From Escherichia phage SP27: a stretch of DNA of 64,000 bases. Positions within the stretch are counted from its first letter, which is position 1; the number at the start of each line of letters is the position of its first letter. The notes under the pieces are model-generated. The model saw nothing but the letters and a program-made list of their open reading frames with translations. It was not told the DNA's origin and ran no database searches. Of this stretch, positions 4,052 through 35,250 are shown one piece after another. The stretch lies in sequence record LC494302.1; one strand, 5' to 3'. The translations under genes were made by a program, and so were the position numbers.

Positions 4052-4187
4052 ATTTGTGCAAATAAAAACCAATGTGACTTTTCCTTGATATAGGTCAAGA
4101 GAAATAACCTGTTCTGACGCTATAATGTTGTCTGGTGATATTAAATATCTTCACCCCCAGATGATTTCAAAATACAAGGAATGTACA

Positions 4188-5993
4188 ATGCAATTAGATA
4201 AATTATATACTGACGTAACGAATTTCCTCAATCAGAGCAATACTGATCTTACCAACGAAAATGCGAACAAAGATGCGAAATGCGTCAATACACACAGGGA
4301 TTTACTTGCAGGTATCCTATCTAAGCATTATTCACAAGATGTTATTCCAAATGAGCTAATGCAGTGGCATAATGATGGTTATGGTCATATTCATGATTTA
4401 GACTACTATATCAGCCCATTAACCAACTGTTGCTTAGTTAACTACCCAGATATGCTAAAAAATGGATTTACCATTGGTTGTGCCAAAATTGAAGAACCAA
4501 AGAGTTTTAGTGTAGCATGTACAGTACTGACACAGATTGTACAAGCAGTAGCTAGTTCCCAATACGGCGGTCAATCGTTGGCTCACATTGATGTCGGTTT
4601 AGAACCTTACGTTCAAAAGTCATGGGATAAGCTGTTAGAAAAACAAAAGAAATATAATCTAAGTGATGAGTTCATTGAAGAAGAATTACGAAAAGAAGTA
4701 TACGATGGATGTCAAACATTACTTTACCAGACTAATTCAATGATTAGCACTAATGGACAAGCTGCATTCATTTCTCTTAGTTTAGGGCTTAATACTTCTA
4801 AATTTGGTAAATTAATCACTGAACAGTACTTAAAAGTTCATGAGAATGGTTTAGGTAAAGATAAGATTACTCCAGTGTTTCCTAAAGTAATTTTCTTTTT
4901 ACAAGATGGTATAAACATGAATACCAATGATAGTAATTATGACCTTAAACAGTTAGCTATGCGTTGTGCATCAAAACGAATCTACCCAGACTTTGTTTCA
5001 GTTCCATTAAATCACAAAGTGACGGGAAGTAGTAGTACTGCTGTAACACCGATGGGCTGTCGTTCATTCTTAGGAAAATGGGAAGATTCAAATGGAAATG
5101 AACAATATAACGGTCGTTTCAATTTAGGCGTAGTTTCTATCAATTTACCTCTAATTGCTCTTGAGAGTGCTTCTGATGGAGAGTTTTTTGATAAGATAGA
5201 CGAGCACATGAATATTGCATATCGTGCTCAGATGAACCGTGTGGAGCGTTTAAAAGGCACTAAAGCGAAGCAGAATCCAATTTTGTTCATGGAAGGTGCA
5301 TTAGCACGTTTAGGTGCAGAAGAAACCATTGACAAGCTATTTTACAATGGTTATGCTAGTATTAGTATTGGTTATGTTGGTCTTGTTGAATGTTCAGAAA
5401 TCCTCACTGGTTCTATCAGTAAGGAGTTTTGTATGTCAGTACTGAATTATATGAAAGTAAAATGTGATGAGTTCAAAAAAGAAAGTAATATTGCTTTTAG
5501 TCTATATGGAACTCCAGCAGAGTCGCTTTGTTATAAATTTGCACGTTGCATTGAAGCAAAATATCCTTCAGTACTAAAACGTGATTACATCACAAATTCC
5601 TTCCATCAACCAGTATGGGTAGAAAGTTCTCCATTTGATAAATGGAGTTATGAAGAAGGGTTTGCTTACCTAAGTAACGGTGGAAACATCAGTTATGTTG
5701 AATCTCCAAACTTAGCAAACAACATTCAAGCACTTGAAACATTAGTTAACTATGCGTACACTAAGATACCATATTTTGGTATTAACCAACCAGTTGACCA
5801 TTGTTATGAATGTGGCTTCCAGGGTGAGTTCAGTGTCGATAAACATGGTTTCCACTGTCCTGTATGTGATAATCGTAATGAGAAGACAATCTCAGTGATT
5901 CGTCGTGTTTCTGGGTACTTGGGTAATCCTTCTTCGCGTGGCTTCAATAAAGGCAAGCAACAAGAGTGTTGCGAGCGTATTCAGCACAAATAA
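4188..5993 (+). CDS. nrdD: anaerobic ribonucleoside-triphosphate reductase (class III RNR, NrdD)
   Basis: Close similarity to T4 NrdD as recalled along the whole length (NENANKD, HDLDY, TNCCLV, SQYGG, PMGCRSF); C-terminal CxxC...CxxC zinc ribbon and glycyl-radical motif RRVSGYLGNP. Start placed at ATG 4188 (AAGGA 8 nt upstream) to match the T4 N-terminus; ORF track extends to 4125. No intron interruption. Confidence 0.9.
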   Translation: MQLDKLYTDVTNFLNQSNTDLTNENANKDAKCVNTHRDLLAGILSKHYSQDVIPNELMQWHNDGYGHIHDLDYYISPLTNCCLVNYPDMLKNGFTIGCAKIEEPKSFSVACTVLTQIVQAVASSQYGGQSLAHIDVGLEPYVQKSWDKLLEKQKKYNLSDEFIEEELRKEVYDGCQTLLYQTNSMISTNGQAAFISLSLGLNTSKFGKLITEQYLKVHENGLGKDKITPVFPKVIFFLQDGINMNTNDSNYDLKQLAMRCASKRIYPDFVSVPLNHKVTGSSSTAVTPMGCRSFLGKWEDSNGNEQYNGRFNLGVVSINLPLIALESASDGEFFDKIDEHMNIAYRAQMNRVERLKGTKAKQNPILFMEGALARLGAEETIDKLFYNGYASISIGYVGLVECSEILTGSISKEFCMSVLNYMKVKCDEFKKESNIAFSLYGTPAESLCYKFARCIEAKYPSVLKRDYITNSFHQPVWVESSPFDKWSYEEGFAYLSNGGNISYVESPNLANNIQALETLVNYAYTKIPYFGINQPVDHCYECGFQGEFSVDKHGFHCPVCDNRNEKTISVIRRVSGYLGNPSSRGFNKGKQQECCERIQHK

Positions 5994-6001
5994 GGTAAAT
6001 T

Positions 6002-6334
6002 ATGGATTTAAAGCCAATTGTGGTTAACAAATACAAAGAACCGTATGATGTGTATATTGGACGTGGGTCTAAATGGGGAAACCCATTTACCCATATTAAA
6101 GATAAACAAACCAAAGCCGAGTTCATTGTTAGTACAAGAGAAGAATCAATTGAAAAATTCAGAGAATACATTATTGAACGTATTTCTTGTGGAGAAGTTA
6201 AGATTGATGAATTACTTGAACTCGCAGGGAAACGCCTTGGTTGTTTCTGTAAACCAAAATCATGTCACGGCGATGTTCTTGTCGAAATAGTGAGTGCAAT
6301 ATTAGATGAATTACCAGACGATAATCAAGGATGA
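6002..6334 (+). CDS. conserved hypothetical protein with GRGSKWGNPF motif (DUF4326-like, family assignment from memory)
   Basis: 110-aa ORF between nrdD and nrdG; YIGRGSKWGNPF and CxCxPxxCHGD-like segments; the 3' end overlaps the nrdG start in another frame. Confidence 0.45.
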   Translation: MDLKPIVVNKYKEPYDVYIGRGSKWGNPFTHIKDKQTKAEFIVSTREESIEKFREYIIERISCGEVKIDELLELAGKRLGCFCKPKSCHGDVLVEIVSAILDELPDDNQG

Positions 6335-6776
6335 TTTAGTAAATGGAGAGGGCGTTCGCTGCTCTTTATTTGTTAGTGGGTGTTCGCACGGATGTGATGG
6401 TTGCTTCAATGAAGAAGCATGGGATTACAGAAGTGGTCAATTGTTCAGTACTGAAACAGTTGAGATTATACTACAGGAACTAAAAAAACCATATGTTAGT
6501 GGTTTGTCACTTCTAGGCGGCGATCCATTAATGAAAAAGAATATAGATGAAGTTTTAAATCTATGCAAAGTAGTTAAAGAAACTTATCCTAGTAAAACTA
6601 TTTGGTGCTGGAGTGGGTATACTTTAGATGAGATTATGAAAAATCATGCTAAAGATATACTTCAGTACTTAGATGTATTAGTTGATGGTAAGTTTATTGA
6701 GTCCGAAAAGAATTTAAAATTACCTTTCCGTGGTTCAAATAATCAAAGAATACTATATAAAAATAAAGATTTTTAG
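6306..6776 (+). CDS. nrdG: anaerobic RNR activating protein (radical SAM, NrdG)
   Basis: N-terminus MNYQTIIKDDLVNGEGVRCSLFVSGCSHGCDGCFN matches T4 NrdG as recalled and carries the CxxxCxxC radical-SAM cluster motif; 156 aa as in T4. Confidence 0.85.
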   Translation: MNYQTIIKDDLVNGEGVRCSLFVSGCSHGCDGCFNEEAWDYRSGQLFSTETVEIILQELKKPYVSGLSLLGGDPLMKKNIDEVLNLCKVVKETYPSKTIWCWSGYTLDEIMKNHAKDILQYLDVLVDGKFIESEKNLKLPFRGSNNQRILYKNKDF

Positions 6777-12898: not shown

Positions 12899-12929
12899 AA
12901 AGCTCGTCTATTGACGGGCTTTTCTTTTA
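12899..12929 (+). terminator. terminator-like hairpin overlapping a promoter
   Basis: aagctcgtc-tatt-gacgggctt stem (one G-U pair) followed by TTCTTTTAT. Confidence 0.4.
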
Positions 12930-12939
12930 TGTGTATAAT
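12911..12939 (+). promoter_or_regulatory. sigma70-like promoter (TTGACG-17-TATAAT)
   Basis: -35 TTGACG and -10 TATAAT with 17-nt spacer, about 20 nt upstream of a GGAGG RBS and ATG 12962. Confidence 0.4.
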
Positions 12940-12961: not shown

Positions 12962-13528
12962 ATGGTCAAAACTTTATTACCACCACCAAAACGTCACAAA
13001 ATCAAAGAAATGAAAGAACAACGTACATTAAAGATGTACAACAATTTAGTTAAGTTACTGTGTAAAAGTCCATCGCTCAAAGCAGAGTTTAAAACTGATG
13101 ATGACCGTAAAGCACTAATTGAGATGAAATATATGCTCAGTAAAATGTCCTTTTACAAATTTGTAAAAGAATACGCATCTGACCCATTTAGTCCTCGTTG
13201 GAGAGCCAAACCAAGAGAGTATTTTTACGGTGGTTCATATACAGATCGCATTCAAGACACAGTGATGGGAGTTGAATTTGAAATCGATTATGAGCCGAAT
13301 GGTGAGGAAATCTTGCAGATTGAGAAACGTTTACCAAGTGAAGAAGAAATTTATGTTTATGCAAGAAAACTTTCAAATTACAGTTCAAGAATTACTCTAG
13401 GCAATTTAGATTCATTAATTATTTTCTATACACGTGTTGGTGTAGATAAGATGGTAACTAAACTCAATGAACTTTCATTACAACAAAAACAGATTAATGC
13501 ATACAAAGACATTACTGATTTATACTAA
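12962..13528 (+). CDS. hypothetical protein, tandem paralog 1 of 3 (188 aa)
   Basis: Strong RBS; shares the motif [D/N]D.[D/N]R[K/R].[L/I]I[E/D].KY.LSK and a W....F.G..Y segment with the next two ORFs. Confidence 0.5.
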   Translation: MVKTLLPPPKRHKIKEMKEQRTLKMYNNLVKLLCKSPSLKAEFKTDDDRKALIEMKYMLSKMSFYKFVKEYASDPFSPRWRAKPREYFYGGSYTDRIQDTVMGVEFEIDYEPNGEEILQIEKRLPSEEEIYVYARKLSNYSSRITLGNLDSLIIFYTRVGVDKMVTKLNELSLQQKQINAYKDITDLY

Positions 13529-13534
13529 TGAGGA

Positions 13535-14056
13535 ATGGATATGTTTTTTGGATCAGTTGGAAAACAAAACAGTACTTTAATTTGGCATGAAATTATCTTC
13601 AAAATTATATCTAAAAGCTACTCACTAAAGGATATTATCACCACAGATAATGATAGACGTATCCTGTTAGATGCAAAATATAAATTGAGCAAACACCCTT
13701 TACTTTCTTTAATCATTGATTACGTTAATGATTATGAATCTAGTCGTTGGAAGTGGGAAGACGGCGGTTTATTTCGTGGAAAAACATTCTACGGTGCGGA
13801 ACGATATGTTTTCAGTGATGCATCAAATGGCGTTAAGTTTGTTATTAGAAACTTTAACTCCAAAGAAAATGATTATCTTGAAAGTGGAGTGAAAGTATAT
13901 ATCGATAATAATAGCAATGTCCTAACATATGACGAATCACTAATTATGTTACAAATAATGCGTGGTGTTGAAGGTGTAAGAAACAACCTTACTAAATTGA
14001 AAATCCAGCAAAATGATATACATAATAGACAGAAAATTAAGGGTTTATATAAATGA
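13535..14056 (+). CDS. hypothetical protein, tandem paralog 2 of 3 (173 aa)
   Basis: TDNDRRILLDAKYKLSK motif shared with paralogs 1 and 3; start may be 13541 (better RBS spacing). Confidence 0.5.
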   Translation: MDMFFGSVGKQNSTLIWHEIIFKIISKSYSLKDIITTDNDRRILLDAKYKLSKHPLLSLIIDYVNDYESSRWKWEDGGLFRGKTFYGAERYVFSDASNGVKFVIRNFNSKENDYLESGVKVYIDNNSNVLTYDESLIMLQIMRGVEGVRNNLTKLKIQQNDIHNRQKIKGLYK

Positions 14057-14562
14057 TTTCATTTTTCAAAAAGAAACAAAAAGTTGATGAAACAGGATTA
14101 GAATCGTTTCTATGGACTCTTATCATCAAAAAAAGTCCATTGATAAAAGAATATGCTATCAATGATGCTAATAGAAAAACTATCATTGAATACAAATACG
14201 AATTATCAAAATGTGATCCAATCGTTTATCACTTTGCGAAGTACTGTTCAAAAAATTTATCGGATATCACAATAGACCATGAGTCAGTTCCAATGAGCTT
14301 TCCTTATGGTGATTGGGTAGATACTTTTGATATTTTTGATGGGTCCAATGGATTCAGTTTCTTTTACTCGTCAAATAAAGCAAATGTTCGTATTAAAACA
14401 GAGATAGGTTGGGCACAGCATAGCTCAAATAAAGAAGATTATAATTTACTAGCTGACGTATACCGAAGTGTGAAGAATTCAAAGGATATTGATGAAAGAA
14501 TTAAAAAGCAAAATCGTATTTCTTTATCACTTGAAACATACAAGTCAAAGTATGGTGGTTAA
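14053..14562 (+). CDS. hypothetical protein, tandem paralog 3 of 3 (169 aa)
   Basis: NDANRKTIIEYKYELSK motif shared with paralogs 1 and 2; ATGA coupling with the upstream gene. Confidence 0.5.
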   Translation: MISFFKKKQKVDETGLESFLWTLIIKKSPLIKEYAINDANRKTIIEYKYELSKCDPIVYHFAKYCSKNLSDITIDHESVPMSFPYGDWVDTFDIFDGSNGFSFFYSSNKANVRIKTEIGWAQHSSNKEDYNLLADVYRSVKNSKDIDERIKKQNRISLSLETYKSKYGG

Positions 14563-14564
14563 CG

Positions 14565-14966
14565 ATGACTACAGTTGATGATATCTACAGCACTATACGC
14601 AATATGAGTACAGATAGAAAAGTATTTGGTGATAAAGAAAAATCTAAGTGTTATGGTATTGATTCTTTTGATATAATTTCTTATGAGTACAACACGAGTG
14701 GAAATAGTTCACTGAATATCGTCTGCCCTCGTGACCCAGAAAATAATTTTATGTATGTTGAAATTAATAATGATGGAATATTTTTTACAAAAGTTTTTAA
14801 AGGTGGAATTAATTACGAACCAATTGAATGTATGAATGAAGAAACTTTCTTTCAAGAAGATACAATTATCAATTTAGGTTTTAGTTTTGATGATTATAAA
14901 ACATTAGAACATGACTTTAATCGTTATTATAACGGTTTCTTAAAGGAGTTAACAATTTATCTATGA
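14565..14966 (+). CDS. hypothetical protein (133 aa)
   Basis: ORF coupled between the paralog trio and the nucleotidyltransferase gene. Confidence 0.45.
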   Translation: MTTVDDIYSTIRNMSTDRKVFGDKEKSKCYGIDSFDIISYEYNTSGNSSLNIVCPRDPENNFMYVEINNDGIFFTKVFKGGINYEPIECMNEETFFQEDTIINLGFSFDDYKTLEHDFNRYYNGFLKELTIYL

Positions 14967-16195
14967 ATAACCAATATGTTGAACAAACAATAGTGAAACA
15001 CTTGGCTGGGTCACAAGCCTACGGAACCAGTACACCTGAAAGTGATACTGATTATCGTGGTATTTTTCTTGCTAATAAAGAATTTATTCTTACGCCATTC
15101 TATAAGGTCAAAGAAGTAGCTGATAAAAATGAAGAAGATACTAAATTCTATGAGTTAAATCAGTATTTAAAATTATACACTGAAGCCAACCCTAATATAT
15201 TGGAATCACTATGGGTCGAACCAGAACACATTGTAGAAAGTACTGAGATTTATGACTATCTTCGTTCATTTAACCAAAAACTTCTTAGTTCTAAGATTGC
15301 ATTTTCATATACTGGATATGCATATAATCAGATTAAGCGTATGACAAATCACCACGGTTGGATGGATAAAGAGCGTATTGCTGAAAAACGTTTAAATGAG
15401 ATTTTAGAAGAACACCCAGTCGATGAGGTTCTTGCGTGGATGTATGATTCATTTCCACAATATCTTGTTGAACGTTTAGATACATCGAACTTACATCCAT
15501 TTAATGCTAAAAAGATTGATTTTGAAAAATATATGCGTGATACGTCATTGCAGTTAGTTTCGAAAAATCCATTAAAGCAATATCATTTTGTAAAATTAGT
15601 GCATAACTACACTACTGACAAAATTCTAGATCGTGATTTCAATTTATTGAATTTTAATAATGGCTATGAACTAATTCATTACGGAGAAAACATTTTTGCG
15701 ATTATTAAAAATCCGAATGAAAGCACTATCAACGGTGATGGATCATTGCGTTATTTTTCTAAAGAGCGTAGTACTGAAGAGTTGAAAACTAAACCAGAAC
15801 TAATTGTCAAATTTAACGAAAAAGAATATCAGGAAAATAGTGAGAATAGGAAAAGTTATCATAAATGGAAAGAAAATCGTAATGCCAAACGTGCTATTTT
15901 AGAATCACAACACGGATACGATTGTAAACATGCTATGCACACAATCCGACTTTTGAATAGTGCAGAAGAAGCATTACAAAGTGGAATTATTCAAGTTAAA
16001 CGACCAGATGCACAAATGTTGATGGATATTCGTAATGGTAAATGGAAGTATGAAGAAGTATTAGAATATTTCGATGATAAAGTACAATACATTCGTGATG
16101 TTCTATATAAGAAATCAGTACTTCCTAAAAAACCAAACATCAAGTTAGCATCAAAAATTATCATTGATATTAGAGAAATGCAATGGTATAAGTAA
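14963..16195 (+). CDS. predicted nucleotidyltransferase (Pol-beta superfamily, GS-x9-DxD type)
   Basis: N-terminal HLAGSQAYGTSTPESDTDYRGIF matches the G[S/G]...YG...SDxD..G signature of minimal/predicted nucleotidyltransferases; 410 aa. Confidence 0.6.
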   Translation: MNNQYVEQTIVKHLAGSQAYGTSTPESDTDYRGIFLANKEFILTPFYKVKEVADKNEEDTKFYELNQYLKLYTEANPNILESLWVEPEHIVESTEIYDYLRSFNQKLLSSKIAFSYTGYAYNQIKRMTNHHGWMDKERIAEKRLNEILEEHPVDEVLAWMYDSFPQYLVERLDTSNLHPFNAKKIDFEKYMRDTSLQLVSKNPLKQYHFVKLVHNYTTDKILDRDFNLLNFNNGYELIHYGENIFAIIKNPNESTINGDGSLRYFSKERSTEELKTKPELIVKFNEKEYQENSENRKSYHKWKENRNAKRAILESQHGYDCKHAMHTIRLLNSAEEALQSGIIQVKRPDAQMLMDIRNGKWKYEEVLEYFDDKVQYIRDVLYKKSVLPKKPNIKLASKIIIDIREMQWYK

Positions 16196-16272
16196 CATAT
16201 ACAAGTGTAATGGTACTAAAAATGCCATTACACTCAATAAATACTCAATATAAATTAACACAAGGATTAAGT

Positions 16273-20613: not shown

Positions 20614-20918
20614 AAAAATTATTAGTTCCGTTTATTTCTTTTTTAATTATAAGTGGGTGTGCCGAACAAGTAAAACTACAATCCCCTGCACCAATTAAAC
20701 AAGAAATTCTGTTAGAAAGATGTGATGATGATACACCTCTACCACAAAAAATTATGATTGACAAAAATGGTTTTAAAGGTTATGATGGTGCAGAAATTCT
20801 TAAAGTACTTACTCGTTGGGATGCAGTCTACAATGAATGTGCTTTAAAACATGACGCATTGATTAAAACTATTCGTGATTTACAAGGTAAAGATATTAAA
20901 ATCAATATCAAGGAATAA
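20610..20918 (+). CDS. putative o-spanin (Rz1-like outer-membrane lipoprotein)
   Basis: Signal peptide with lipobox IISGC, Pro-containing mature region; ATGA-coupled to the i-spanin candidate; separated (non-embedded) as in T4 pseT.3/pseT.2. Confidence 0.5.
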   Translation: MKKLLVPFISFLIISGCAEQVKLQSPAPIKQEILLERCDDDTPLPQKIMIDKNGFKGYDGAEILKVLTRWDAVYNECALKHDALIKTIRDLQGKDIKINIKE

Positions 20919-20919
20919 A

Positions 20920-21531
20920 ATGAACAAATATCATGTTTACTATACGACAAAATTATCACTTCTTGAAGAATTAAATCAACGAAGTACTAAGATGAAACGC
21001 TACACTTTAAATGGTATTACTTTTCGATATTTCCCACAAAAAGTTCTTACTTTTGTTAAGAATCCAAAATGCGTGGCATGTGGGATTGAAGCTACTGAAG
21101 TACGCATTGAACGTTCATTATGTTCTGATCCAGTATATGGTAAACCACATTTAAATGTATATGCTGTATGTGGTCTTTATGAAGTTTTAATGACAGTTGA
21201 CCATAATCATCTGGCATCTAAGGGTGGACCTGATTTAGAGTCAAACTTTAATACTATGTGCTCCAGATGTAATCAACTACGTTCGAATAAAACTGAAACA
21301 GTTGATGAGTTTCTTGAAAAAGTTAAAGGTCGTAATCTTCTCCAAGAACATATGAATAATTTCTTTAATGTACAAAAAAAGAAAAATAACATTGACAAGT
21401 CGAAACTACTAGAAGAACGTAGGTTACGTCAAGAATTATGGGAAACCGATCATCTATGGCATGTTCGAGAGTTTGGTCGTCATATGAAAGCTTTGAAAAA
21501 AGAACAGAAGAAATTGAATAAACATGATTGA
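20920..21531 (+). CDS. HNH endonuclease (free-standing homing endonuclease-like)
   Basis: HNH signature: CxxC, DHNHLASKGG, NFNTMCSRCNQLRSNK; start placed at ATG 20920 with AAGGAA RBS (ORF track gives 20875). Confidence 0.7.
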   Translation: MNKYHVYYTTKLSLLEELNQRSTKMKRYTLNGITFRYFPQKVLTFVKNPKCVACGIEATEVRIERSLCSDPVYGKPHLNVYAVCGLYEVLMTVDHNHLASKGGPDLESNFNTMCSRCNQLRSNKTETVDEFLEKVKGRNLLQEHMNNFFNVQKKKNNIDKSKLLEERRLRQELWETDHLWHVREFGRHMKALKKEQKKLNKHD

Positions 21532-34762: not shown

Positions 34763-34773
34763 CGGAGAATATA

Positions 34774-35250
34774 ATGATTCATGAACACCGAGGTAATCTG
34801 TTTGAATTATTCAGTACTGTAACAGATGATAAAACAGCAATACATATAATTGCTCATGGTTGTAACGCACAGGGTAAAATGGGTTCAGGTTTTGCAAAAG
34901 AGCTAAGAAATCGTTACCCAATGGCATATGATGATTATAAAGCATATGAAAAGGAAATGGGATTTCTTAGAATTGGACAAATTGCATATTCAGCAATTAA
35001 CGATAATTTGATTATTGCAAACTGTATTACCCAAAAAATGTACGGTAATGACGGTGCTAAATATGTCAGTTATGATGCAATCGACGATGTGTTCAAACAT
35101 CTAAATTATTTTTGTAAAGTTGATCGAGATGTTCATGTACACTTCCCGAAAATTGGAGCCGATTTGGGCGGCGGTAACTGGAACGTTATCAAAGAAATCA
35201 TTGATCACCGACTGGTCAATGCAGAAAAACACTTATACATTCTAAAATAA
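34774..35250 (+). CDS. macrodomain protein of the TARG1/OARD1/DarG type (ADP-ribose hydrolase family)
   Basis: GNLF...HIIAHGCNAQGKMGSGFAKELRNRYP and FPKIGADLGGGNWNVIKEII parallel the GDLF...AHC.S.D..MGAGIA and PRIGCGLDRLQW segments of TARG1-type macrodomains as recalled. Confidence 0.65.
   Translation: MIHEHRGNLFELFSTVTDDKTAIHIIAHGCNAQGKMGSGFAKELRNRYPMAYDDYKAYEKEMGFLRIGQIAYSAINDNLIIANCITQKMYGNDGAKYVSYDAIDDVFKHLNYFCKVDRDVHVHFPKIGADLGGGNWNVIKEIIDHRLVNAEKHLYILK

Follow-up and report, generated by a model that had tools for sequence, protein, structure and literature searches.

The window analysed here, a stretch of 64,000 nucleotides (nt) from Escherichia phage SP27 (sequence record LC494302.1), carries at 14963..16195 on the plus strand an open reading frame (ORF) that starts with ATG and encodes a nucleotidyltransferase (NTase) of 410 amino acids, as given in the ORF list of the window. 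The phage is a 121Q/PBECO4-like Asteriusvirus, from a group whose genomes measure about 350 kb. Across the region, identity amounts to 99.5% with Escherichia phages BAU.Micro_ELP-22, UB and JP4 and to 97.7% with phage 121Q, where the gene corresponds to gp506. The product name “nucleotidyltransferase” is already present in RefSeq and in several other records. We assign the protein to the RlaP family, of which it represents a long form, and the parts of the gene that carry this assignment are the following.

14963..16195, plus strand: ORF of the long-form RlaP-family NTase, 410 amino acids, equal to 121Q gp506.
15008..15067, plus strand: catalytic motifs G16-S17 (hG[GS]) and D28-x-D30, taken from the alignments and located in beta1/helix and beta2 of the AlphaFold2 model.
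15137..15139, plus strand: D59, the third catalytic carboxylate (in EEDTKFYEL), invariant up to and including NrdC.11 of phage T4 and at the start of the modelled strand 60-64.
15374..15562, plus strand: helical insertion restricted to the jumbo-phage clade, residues ~138-200, missing from homologues of ~350 residues and modelled with a high predicted local distance difference test score (pLDDT).
15575..15817, plus strand: beta-rich insert subdomain of the long form, residues ~205-285, found in members of ~350 residues and not in those of 233-281 residues.
15818..16192, plus strand: helical C-terminal domain, residues 286-410, with invariant motif residues.

Membership in the RlaP family is secure. 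The Pfam RlaP model (PF10127) matches with 60.3 bits against a gathering cut-off of 23 (E=3e-16), PHROG 388 (“nucleotidyltransferase”) matches across residues 3-409 (E=2.5e-77), and the best homologue retrieved with the protein has an E-value of 2e-264. PF10127 had been annotated beforehand on all homologues listed, except for one truncated protein of 287 residues. A preliminary description of the locus, made from the sequence without database searches, had recognised a Pol-beta-superfamily NTase by the signature GSQAYG (residues 16-21, nt 15008-15025) followed by SDTDYRGIF (residues 27-35, nt 15041-15067); this signature is present, and the Pol-beta set of hG[GS], DxD and a third aspartate is complete. 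G16, S17, D30 and D59 are invariant in an alignment of 74 sequences (A2), where D28 is kept in at least 90%, all five residues are invariant in an alignment of 19 sequences that includes T4 NrdC.11 (A1), and in one of 10 sequences (A3) D59 is likewise invariant, the other four residues being invariant or nearly so. The paired acidic residues, which had been proposed as the feature to look for in alignments, are thus conserved. Given the Pfam and PHROG E-values, homologues down to 2e-264 and invariant catalytic residues, the signature is far beyond what chance would produce.

The profile searches that had been recommended led, via PF10127 and PHROG 388, to the RlaP family and not to a well-characterised housekeeping enzyme, homology to which had been named as grounds for giving up the proposal. 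The family is large, as an RlaP-type profile retrieves 10,414 clusters (50% identity) at E <= 1e-3 and 1,838 at E <= 1e-30, and the protein from the window is an ordinary member of this known and already catalogued family. An NCBIfam scan of the NTase gave no match, and in the Pfam scan it did not match PF01743, the head domain of PolyA_pol. Sequence searches of the PDB with the whole protein, with the profile from 74 sequences and with each terminal domain returned only chance matches to keratin and LeuRS (E > 0.6), in a set of structures that apparently lacked the Pseudomonas enzyme PfRlaP.

The label “minimal” which the enzyme had received in the preliminary description does not apply, as it is a multi-domain protein. 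An AlphaFold2 model derived from 74 sequences (pLDDT 92.0, predicted template-modelling score 0.81) begins with a Pol-beta NTase domain (residues ~1-110), followed by a long helix (112-150), a stretch of further helices (154-209), a subdomain rich in beta structure (210-284, with strands 210-215, 235-241, 244-249 and 280-284) and a helical C-terminal domain (286-409). Fold searches, for which the whole model was used as query and not the insert subdomain alone, gave Pol-beta NTases as the best matches. Family members of 233-281 residues align only to residues 1-136 and ~286-410; they match both the N-terminal and the C-terminal profile module, and in one of them Pfam covers positions 23-227 of 249. 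Homologues of ~350 residues, from phages as well as bacteria, keep the beta subdomain and lack residues ~138-200. Because the shorter homologues are devoid of one or both of these segments, we regard the protein as an RlaP core into which two nested segments are inserted.

The C-terminal domain carries a characteristic motif, R306-N307..R310..E314..GYD320-C-K322-HAM-H326..R329 (nt 15911-15952), together with R347-P-D349-A. Its invariant basic and acidic residues are R306, R310, E314, D320, K322, H326, R329, R347 and D349; in the alignment of 19 sequences, T4 NrdC.11 included, E314, D320, K322, H326, R329, E336 and D349 are invariant, and throughout the long-form subfamily the motif is invariant as GYD[T/C]KHAMH..R. 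In several homologues of 680-760 residues (P0121, P0132, P0124, P0094, P0123, P0142 and P0145), an insert of ~330 residues is located exactly between D320 and T/C321 (GYD|[T/C]KHAMH), a site which corresponds to nt ~15920-15925 of the window. We interpret this insert as an intein because its first residue is Cys, it ends with ..GN and, in one case, it contains a LAGLIDADG domain. The NTase from the window does not itself contain an intein. As inteins target GYD|TKHAMH, the motif must be functionally critical. An interpretation of the C-terminal domain as a HEPN RNase was rejected, as there is no conserved Rx4-6H and the His of the sole R-x6-H (R310..H317) is not conserved.

Two members of the family from Pseudomonas, PfRlaP and PaRlaP, which are encoded between rtcB and rtcA, have been studied by Carruthers, Fatma & Huang (bioRxiv, December 2025; PMC12776372). 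Of the macromolecules from E. coli, they label RNA only, neither DNA nor protein; they append 1-2 nucleoside monophosphates to RNA 3'-OH ends, accepting any nucleoside triphosphate (NTP) and also dATP, and they favour Mn2+ and the 5' half of a cleaved-tRNA mimic (PMC12776372). They rescue in part the aminoacylation of a tRNA which is short of one anticodon-loop nucleotide, and their 3'-OH product is described as incompatible with RtcB (PMC12776372). In the crystal structure of PfRlaP the NTase domain together with a helical domain at the C terminus forms a cleft, and three aspartates are strictly conserved; T4 NrdC.11 was assigned to the family in the same study (cluster 5 of a sequence similarity network; PMC12776372). 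RlaP has been described as the commonest repair NTase of jumbo phages and as co-distributing with RNA ligases (Iyer et al. 2021, PMC7824862). The gene for T4 NrdC.11 lies within a fragment which can be deleted in the laboratory (PMC9825161), and this dispensability fits a conditional accessory or counter-defence role. By analogy with the characterised enzymes, the 3' end of RNA or tRNA, which headed the list of candidate substrates in the preliminary description, would be the expected target.

We surveyed the gene neighbourhoods of the best 80 of 277 genomic relatives from bacteria. In 25 of these 80 loci the long form (~333-353 residues) directly adjoins a canonical RlaP on the same strand (L129-L131, L135, L136, L140-L142, L144, L149-L151, L154-L158, L160, L162, L164, L167, L170, L173, L176 and L179); the adjoining canonical protein, of ~254 residues, is full length (254 bits, PF10127 positions 1-248 of 249). 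RtcB occurs in one string with the long form in 7 of the 80 loci, and in 6 of the 25 tandem loci the RtcB ligase precedes the canonical and the long RlaP. Strings of this type are found in Bacteroidota, an example being Fulvivirga kasyanovii (L130, 3774-7026), where the genes for RtcB, RlaP and long RlaP are separated by gaps of just 2 and 11 nt. With the Fulvivirga long form, the NTase from the window can be aligned from one end to the other (E=2e-40; 400 columns at 28% identity). The arrangement suggests that two non-redundant RlaP paralogues reside within one repair operon.

In phages, where the best 80 of 508 confirmed IMG/VR relatives were surveyed, a CCA-adding enzyme is a recurrent partner: in 11 loci it is encoded on the same strand as the RlaP-like gene and upstream of it, at distances from 9 nt to 2.9 kb. 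Among the non-jumbo loci for which 5 kb or more of upstream sequence is available, they make up 11 of 41, where about 2% would be expected for random placement in a genome of ~150 kb. The CCA gene stops 9 nt before the RlaP-like gene in one locus (L034) and overlaps it in another (L007); in a Mydovirus it is found 2 kb upstream. In all 11 CCA-linked lineages the enzyme is homologous to the product of a gene in the window at 32321..33433. Of 14 jumbo-clade loci, 8 encode Thg1 at a distance of 1.8-3.1 kb upstream, and PNKP, Metallophos or Rnl1 are close by in a few further phage loci, so that a CCA-adding enzyme, PNKP, Metallophos, Thg1 or Rnl1 occurs within 10 kb in 24 of the 80. Gene orders include Metallophos, AAA_33 kinase, CCA-adding enzyme and RlaP with overlapping stop and start codons, in another locus PNKP followed at a distance by the CCA-adding enzyme and RlaP, and in others Thg1, an array of paralogues and RlaP. 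An RNA ligase was detected near the RlaP-like gene in only 1 of the 80 loci; phage ligases may be undercounted, as the seed set of the survey contained neither Rnl2 nor RtcB. RNA-repair cassettes, one of the contexts considered in the preliminary description, are a setting in which relatives of the gene do occur.

Further RNA-repair genes are present in this phage lineage. The gene for the CCA-adding enzyme in the window, 16 kb downstream of the NTase gene, encodes its likely functional partner. Phage 121Q has a T4-type Rnl1 (gp438) and a PNKP (gp443), both verified with Pfam, in a segment which is kept in 35 of 35 related records, and tRNA genes are encoded elsewhere in the phage genome, outside the window. 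Within the ~289 kb of 121Q that were inspected (positions ~289-348 kb being left out), gp506 is the sole RlaP-type gene and there is no Thg1. Rnl1 and PNKP of T4, which act against PrrC, are the classic case of RNA repair as a phage counter-defence.

We consider it fairly probable, by analogy with the characterised relatives, that the NTase is a long-form RlaP which repairs tRNA ends without a template as part of a phage counter-defence kit. The protein would be expressed from the last gene of a unit of five genes. If the enzyme works like the bacterial RlaPs, the cleft between its NTase and C-terminal domains would receive an NTP, probably together with Mn2+, and one or two nucleotides would be attached, independently of a template, to a damaged RNA at its 3'-OH; the likeliest substrate would be a tRNA. 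Gene context and gene content indicate that the enzyme may share a repair kit with Rnl1, PNKP, the CCA-adding enzyme and the tRNAs of the phage: nucleotides lost to host ribotoxins or nucleases would be put back, and the restored end could then be resealed by Rnl1/PNKP, if in the anticodon loop, or finished by the CCA-adding enzyme, if at the acceptor end. Either may be the target, as the long form is kept beside canonical RlaP in bacteria and follows CCA-adding enzymes or Thg1, not ligases, in phages.

A number of points weigh against this interpretation. The mechanism, with support from the gene context of relatives, is extrapolated from the characterised enzymes, which are canonical short RlaPs of bacteria, and the protein belongs to a divergent subfamily. 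The match to PF10127 spans just model positions 23-144 of 249, that is the NTase core, and the similarity to the canonical RlaP of Fulvivirga is likewise confined to ~75 residues of this core (E=9e-6). The model has an NTase domain and a helical domain, which may correspond to the two domains of PfRlaP, but ~150 residues of inserts separate them. The tandem occurrence of canonical and long RlaP suggests that their activities are non-redundant and possibly different. With respect to gene context, no RNA-repair gene adjoins the NTase gene in the window, where the neighbours are lineage-specific ORFs of unassigned function and tail-fibre genes; the gene for the CCA-adding enzyme is not adjacent, and in 121Q a distance of ~36-38 kb separates gp506 from the genes for Rnl1 and PNKP, which lie upstream of it and beyond the window. 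Long-form members from cyanobacteria have unrelated neighbours (glyoxalase, GNAT, PIN7). Finally, the neighbourhood counts for phages and bacteria are raw values in which shared ancestry is not factored in.

The alternative that survives best is a variant in which the long form is specialised on the tRNA acceptor end. There it would restore the discriminator or the terminal nucleotides before the CCA-adding enzyme acts, parallel to Thg1 at the 5' end and independent of any ligase. The recurrent same-strand neighbours in phages, a CCA-adding enzyme in 11 loci and Thg1 in 8 jumbo-clade loci, speak for such a specialisation, as do the single locus out of 80 with an RNA ligase nearby and the 3'-OH product, which directly suits a CCA-adding enzyme and is incompatible with RtcB (PMC12776372). 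We nevertheless regard an exclusive role at the acceptor end as rather unlikely, considering that bacterial long-form members are found in strings with RtcB, that the CCA gene is 16 kb away in the window, and that the scarcity of ligases may reflect phage seeds without Rnl2 and RtcB.

The other activities which the preliminary description had entertained, namely protein AMPylation, signalling and modification of small molecules, fared less well, with weak support at the level of the fold and no match to the NTase in a PADLOC scan. A protein-AMPylating enzyme, resembling MNT antitoxins or DrrA and inactivating a host toxin or another host protein, is very unlikely. There is no sequence similarity to solved MNT, DrrA or HEPN chains, no HEPN gene or domain neighbours the NTase at the locus, and the protein, with its 410 residues, is not a small NTase. 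The resemblance is confined to the fold, and the combination of an NTase domain with a helical bundle is generic to KNTase-like enzymes. In addition, the characterised RlaPs left E. coli proteins unlabelled (PMC12776372). Equally improbable is a synthase of signal nucleotides or oligonucleotides acting in anti-defence, either a HalB-like maker of oligodeoxyadenylate that silences a Hailong-type effector or a CD-NTase-like enzyme. HalB is indeed returned by Foldseek (E=0.026), at a template-modelling (TM) score of ~0.2-0.3 and 15% identity, which is explained by the shared Pol-beta core; fold matches to CD-NTases have probabilities of 0.04 or less, there is no sequence match in the PDB, the neighbourhoods point to tRNA enzymes, and no effector-like gene is a neighbour at the locus. 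Hardly credible, finally, is an NTase for small molecules (antibiotics or metabolites) like KNTase, ANT(4') or LinB, or else a helper of virion assembly: the fold matches include KNTase, ANT and LinB, but with TM scores of ~0.2-0.3 and 10-13% identity, and while tail-fibre genes lie directly downstream and T4 Rnl1 also acts in tail-fibre attachment (as is mirrored in the product name of 121Q gp438), other phage lineages that were looked at show no conserved linkage of the RlaP-like gene to tail genes, and in 121Q the protein does not carry a virion-protein flag. The AMPylase, signal-synthase and small-molecule readings are based on the shared Pol-beta core, and we consider them unlikely.

The surroundings of the NTase gene contain the following additional features.

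12899..12939, plus strand: terminator hairpin (12899-12922) with a U-run, overlapping a sigma-70-like promoter match (12911-12939).
12962..14562, plus strand: three tandem paralogous small ORFs of 188, 173 and 169 amino acids, in the same direction as the NTase gene.
14565..14966, plus strand: ORF of 133 amino acids (phrog_22376), the stop codon of which overlaps the NTase start codon (ATGA).
16204..16234, plus strand: 12-bp hairpin without a U-run (dG -15.1 kcal/mol, z -4.83).
32321..33433, plus strand: CCA-adding tRNA nucleotidyltransferase, based on the Pfam domains PolyA_pol and PolyA_pol_RNAbd and on the annotation of the record.

Five closely spaced ORFs run in one direction here, and the NTase gene closes the series. 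Paralogy is clear for two members of the triplet, 12962..13528 and 13535..14056 (E=1e-14 with 30% identity across 175 residues, both phrog_18641), and the ORF at 14053..14562 is a distant third one (BLASTP E ~1e-3, with cross-hits between phrog_7868 and phrog_18641). The preliminary description had placed the NTase gene behind a tandem triplet of paralogues; the triplet was essentially confirmed, but the ORF at 14565..14966, which is unrelated to it, intervenes. The 4-nt overlap of this 133-residue ORF with the NTase gene makes translational coupling of the two likely. We infer that the five-gene unit begins after the terminator and promoter at ~12.9 kb. Both elements were called from sequence patterns, the terminator as a hairpin (dG -17 kcal/mol, z -6.25) followed by a U-run and the promoter, the function of which is predicted, as a match to TTGACG-17-TATAAT in 11 of 12 positions. 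On the other side, the hairpin at 16204-16234, a perfect 12-bp helix, starts 9 nt past the NTase stop codon and covers the annotated start (16210) of an ORF of 63 amino acids; it possibly marks the 3' boundary of the unit, serves in RNA processing or stability, or acts as a terminator of low strength. The tail-fibre genes come directly downstream of the unit. Scans of the window for tRNA genes and for Rfam families found none, and repeats within 12.7-16.5 kb are at chance level.

The triplet family comprises 5 clusters, is restricted to Asteriusvirus-type phages and has no Pfam domain, and thus provides no functional clue. A distantly related array of three genes is found between Thg1 and the RlaP gene on a related jumbo-phage contig (L016, 6374-7997). 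Between 6853 and 12894, the window has two very large ORFs of 898 and 939 residues (the latter belonging to phrog_3573, of unassigned function) and one of 195 residues, none of them with a Pfam match; they are syntenic with ORFs of 901, 197 and 918 residues on that same contig, the proteins of 195 and 197 residues being 39% identical. Still further upstream, 8-10 kb from the NTase gene, are the anaerobic ribonucleotide reductase genes nrdD and nrdG (4125-6776). On a different jumbo-phage contig of ~330 kb (L014, 3351-9308), only two ORFs, one of which has a weak match to ART-PolyVal, separate nrdD/nrdG from the RlaP homologue, which is followed by a small Gly_radical ORF. T4 nrdC.11 is likewise located in an nrd region.

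Among the lysis and structural genes that come after the tail-fibre genes is a free-standing gene for an HNH endonuclease (20875-21531). The CCA-adding enzyme belongs to a cluster (32321-35250) with a NUDIX hydrolase (33542..33943), a thioredoxin-domain ORF (33941..34189) and an ORF of 158 residues (34774..35250); the last is annotated as “phosphatase”, and its only match is a sub-threshold one to the Macro domain (16.4 bits where 22 are required, E=0.009). Just outside the window, a Sir2-like protein adjoins a Nudix hydrolase in 121Q (220175-221475; L019, 20175-21475), possibly an NAD+-related counter-defence pair.

Nothing about this gene is categorically new: the gene was annotated, the family is curated in Pfam and has been published from jumbo phages, and its chemistry was characterised in 2025. 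The value of the analysis is in the picture of the subfamily, with a bacterial tandem of long form, canonical RlaP and RtcB, a pairing with CCA-adding enzymes or Thg1 in phages, and an intein hotspot in the C-terminal motif. It is a tentative possibility that the long forms, comprising the gene in the window, T4 NrdC.11 and their bacterial counterparts, constitute a distinct paralogue (“RlaP2”) with a beta-rich insert for tRNA recognition, which in bacteria would accompany canonical RlaP and RtcB and in phages would serve with CCA-adding enzymes and Thg1 in end repair of the acceptor stem. In that case the module would counter host nucleases which trim tRNA ends, and not provide a generic extension of RNA ends. 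RlaP is the least understood component of phage RNA repair, and the subfamily picture offers a testable hypothesis for T4 nrdC.11 and for the contribution of long forms to tRNA repair.

Among known systems, several NTases resemble the protein in general features. HalB of Hailong, the MNT antitoxins and the kanamycin and lincosamide NTases share its Pol-beta core, and the KNTase-type enzymes also have a helical-bundle (HEPN-like) second domain, as does the model of the NTase from the window. Class II CCA-adding enzymes (PF01743) are members of the Pol-beta superfamily, too, and carry out template-independent addition to RNA 3' ends; however, they represent a different family, which is encoded separately here at 32321..33433.

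T4 NrdC.11 (336 residues), which was found by tblastn, is a distant homologue with 22% identity in the alignment of 19 sequences, and it is PF10127-positive. It shares with the protein from the window the N-terminal catalytic residues as well as E314, D320, K322, H326 and R329 of the C-terminal domain, and it is likewise the product of an accessory gene in a large lytic coliphage equipped with Rnl1 and PNKP. It differs in being shorter and lacking the jumbo-clade insert, and its gene lies between mobD and NrdC.10, and neither a tRNA-enzyme gene nor an RNA-repair gene is among its neighbours. The bacterial RlaPs have in common with the window protein PF10127, the set of GS, DxD and third Asp, and, to judge by the model, probably the plan of an NTase domain followed by a helical C-terminal domain; long-form relatives of the phage protein also occur in strings with RtcB. 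Bacterial RlaPs have ~250 residues as compared to 410, the phage protein being extended by its beta-rich and helical inserts and having a divergent C-terminal domain.

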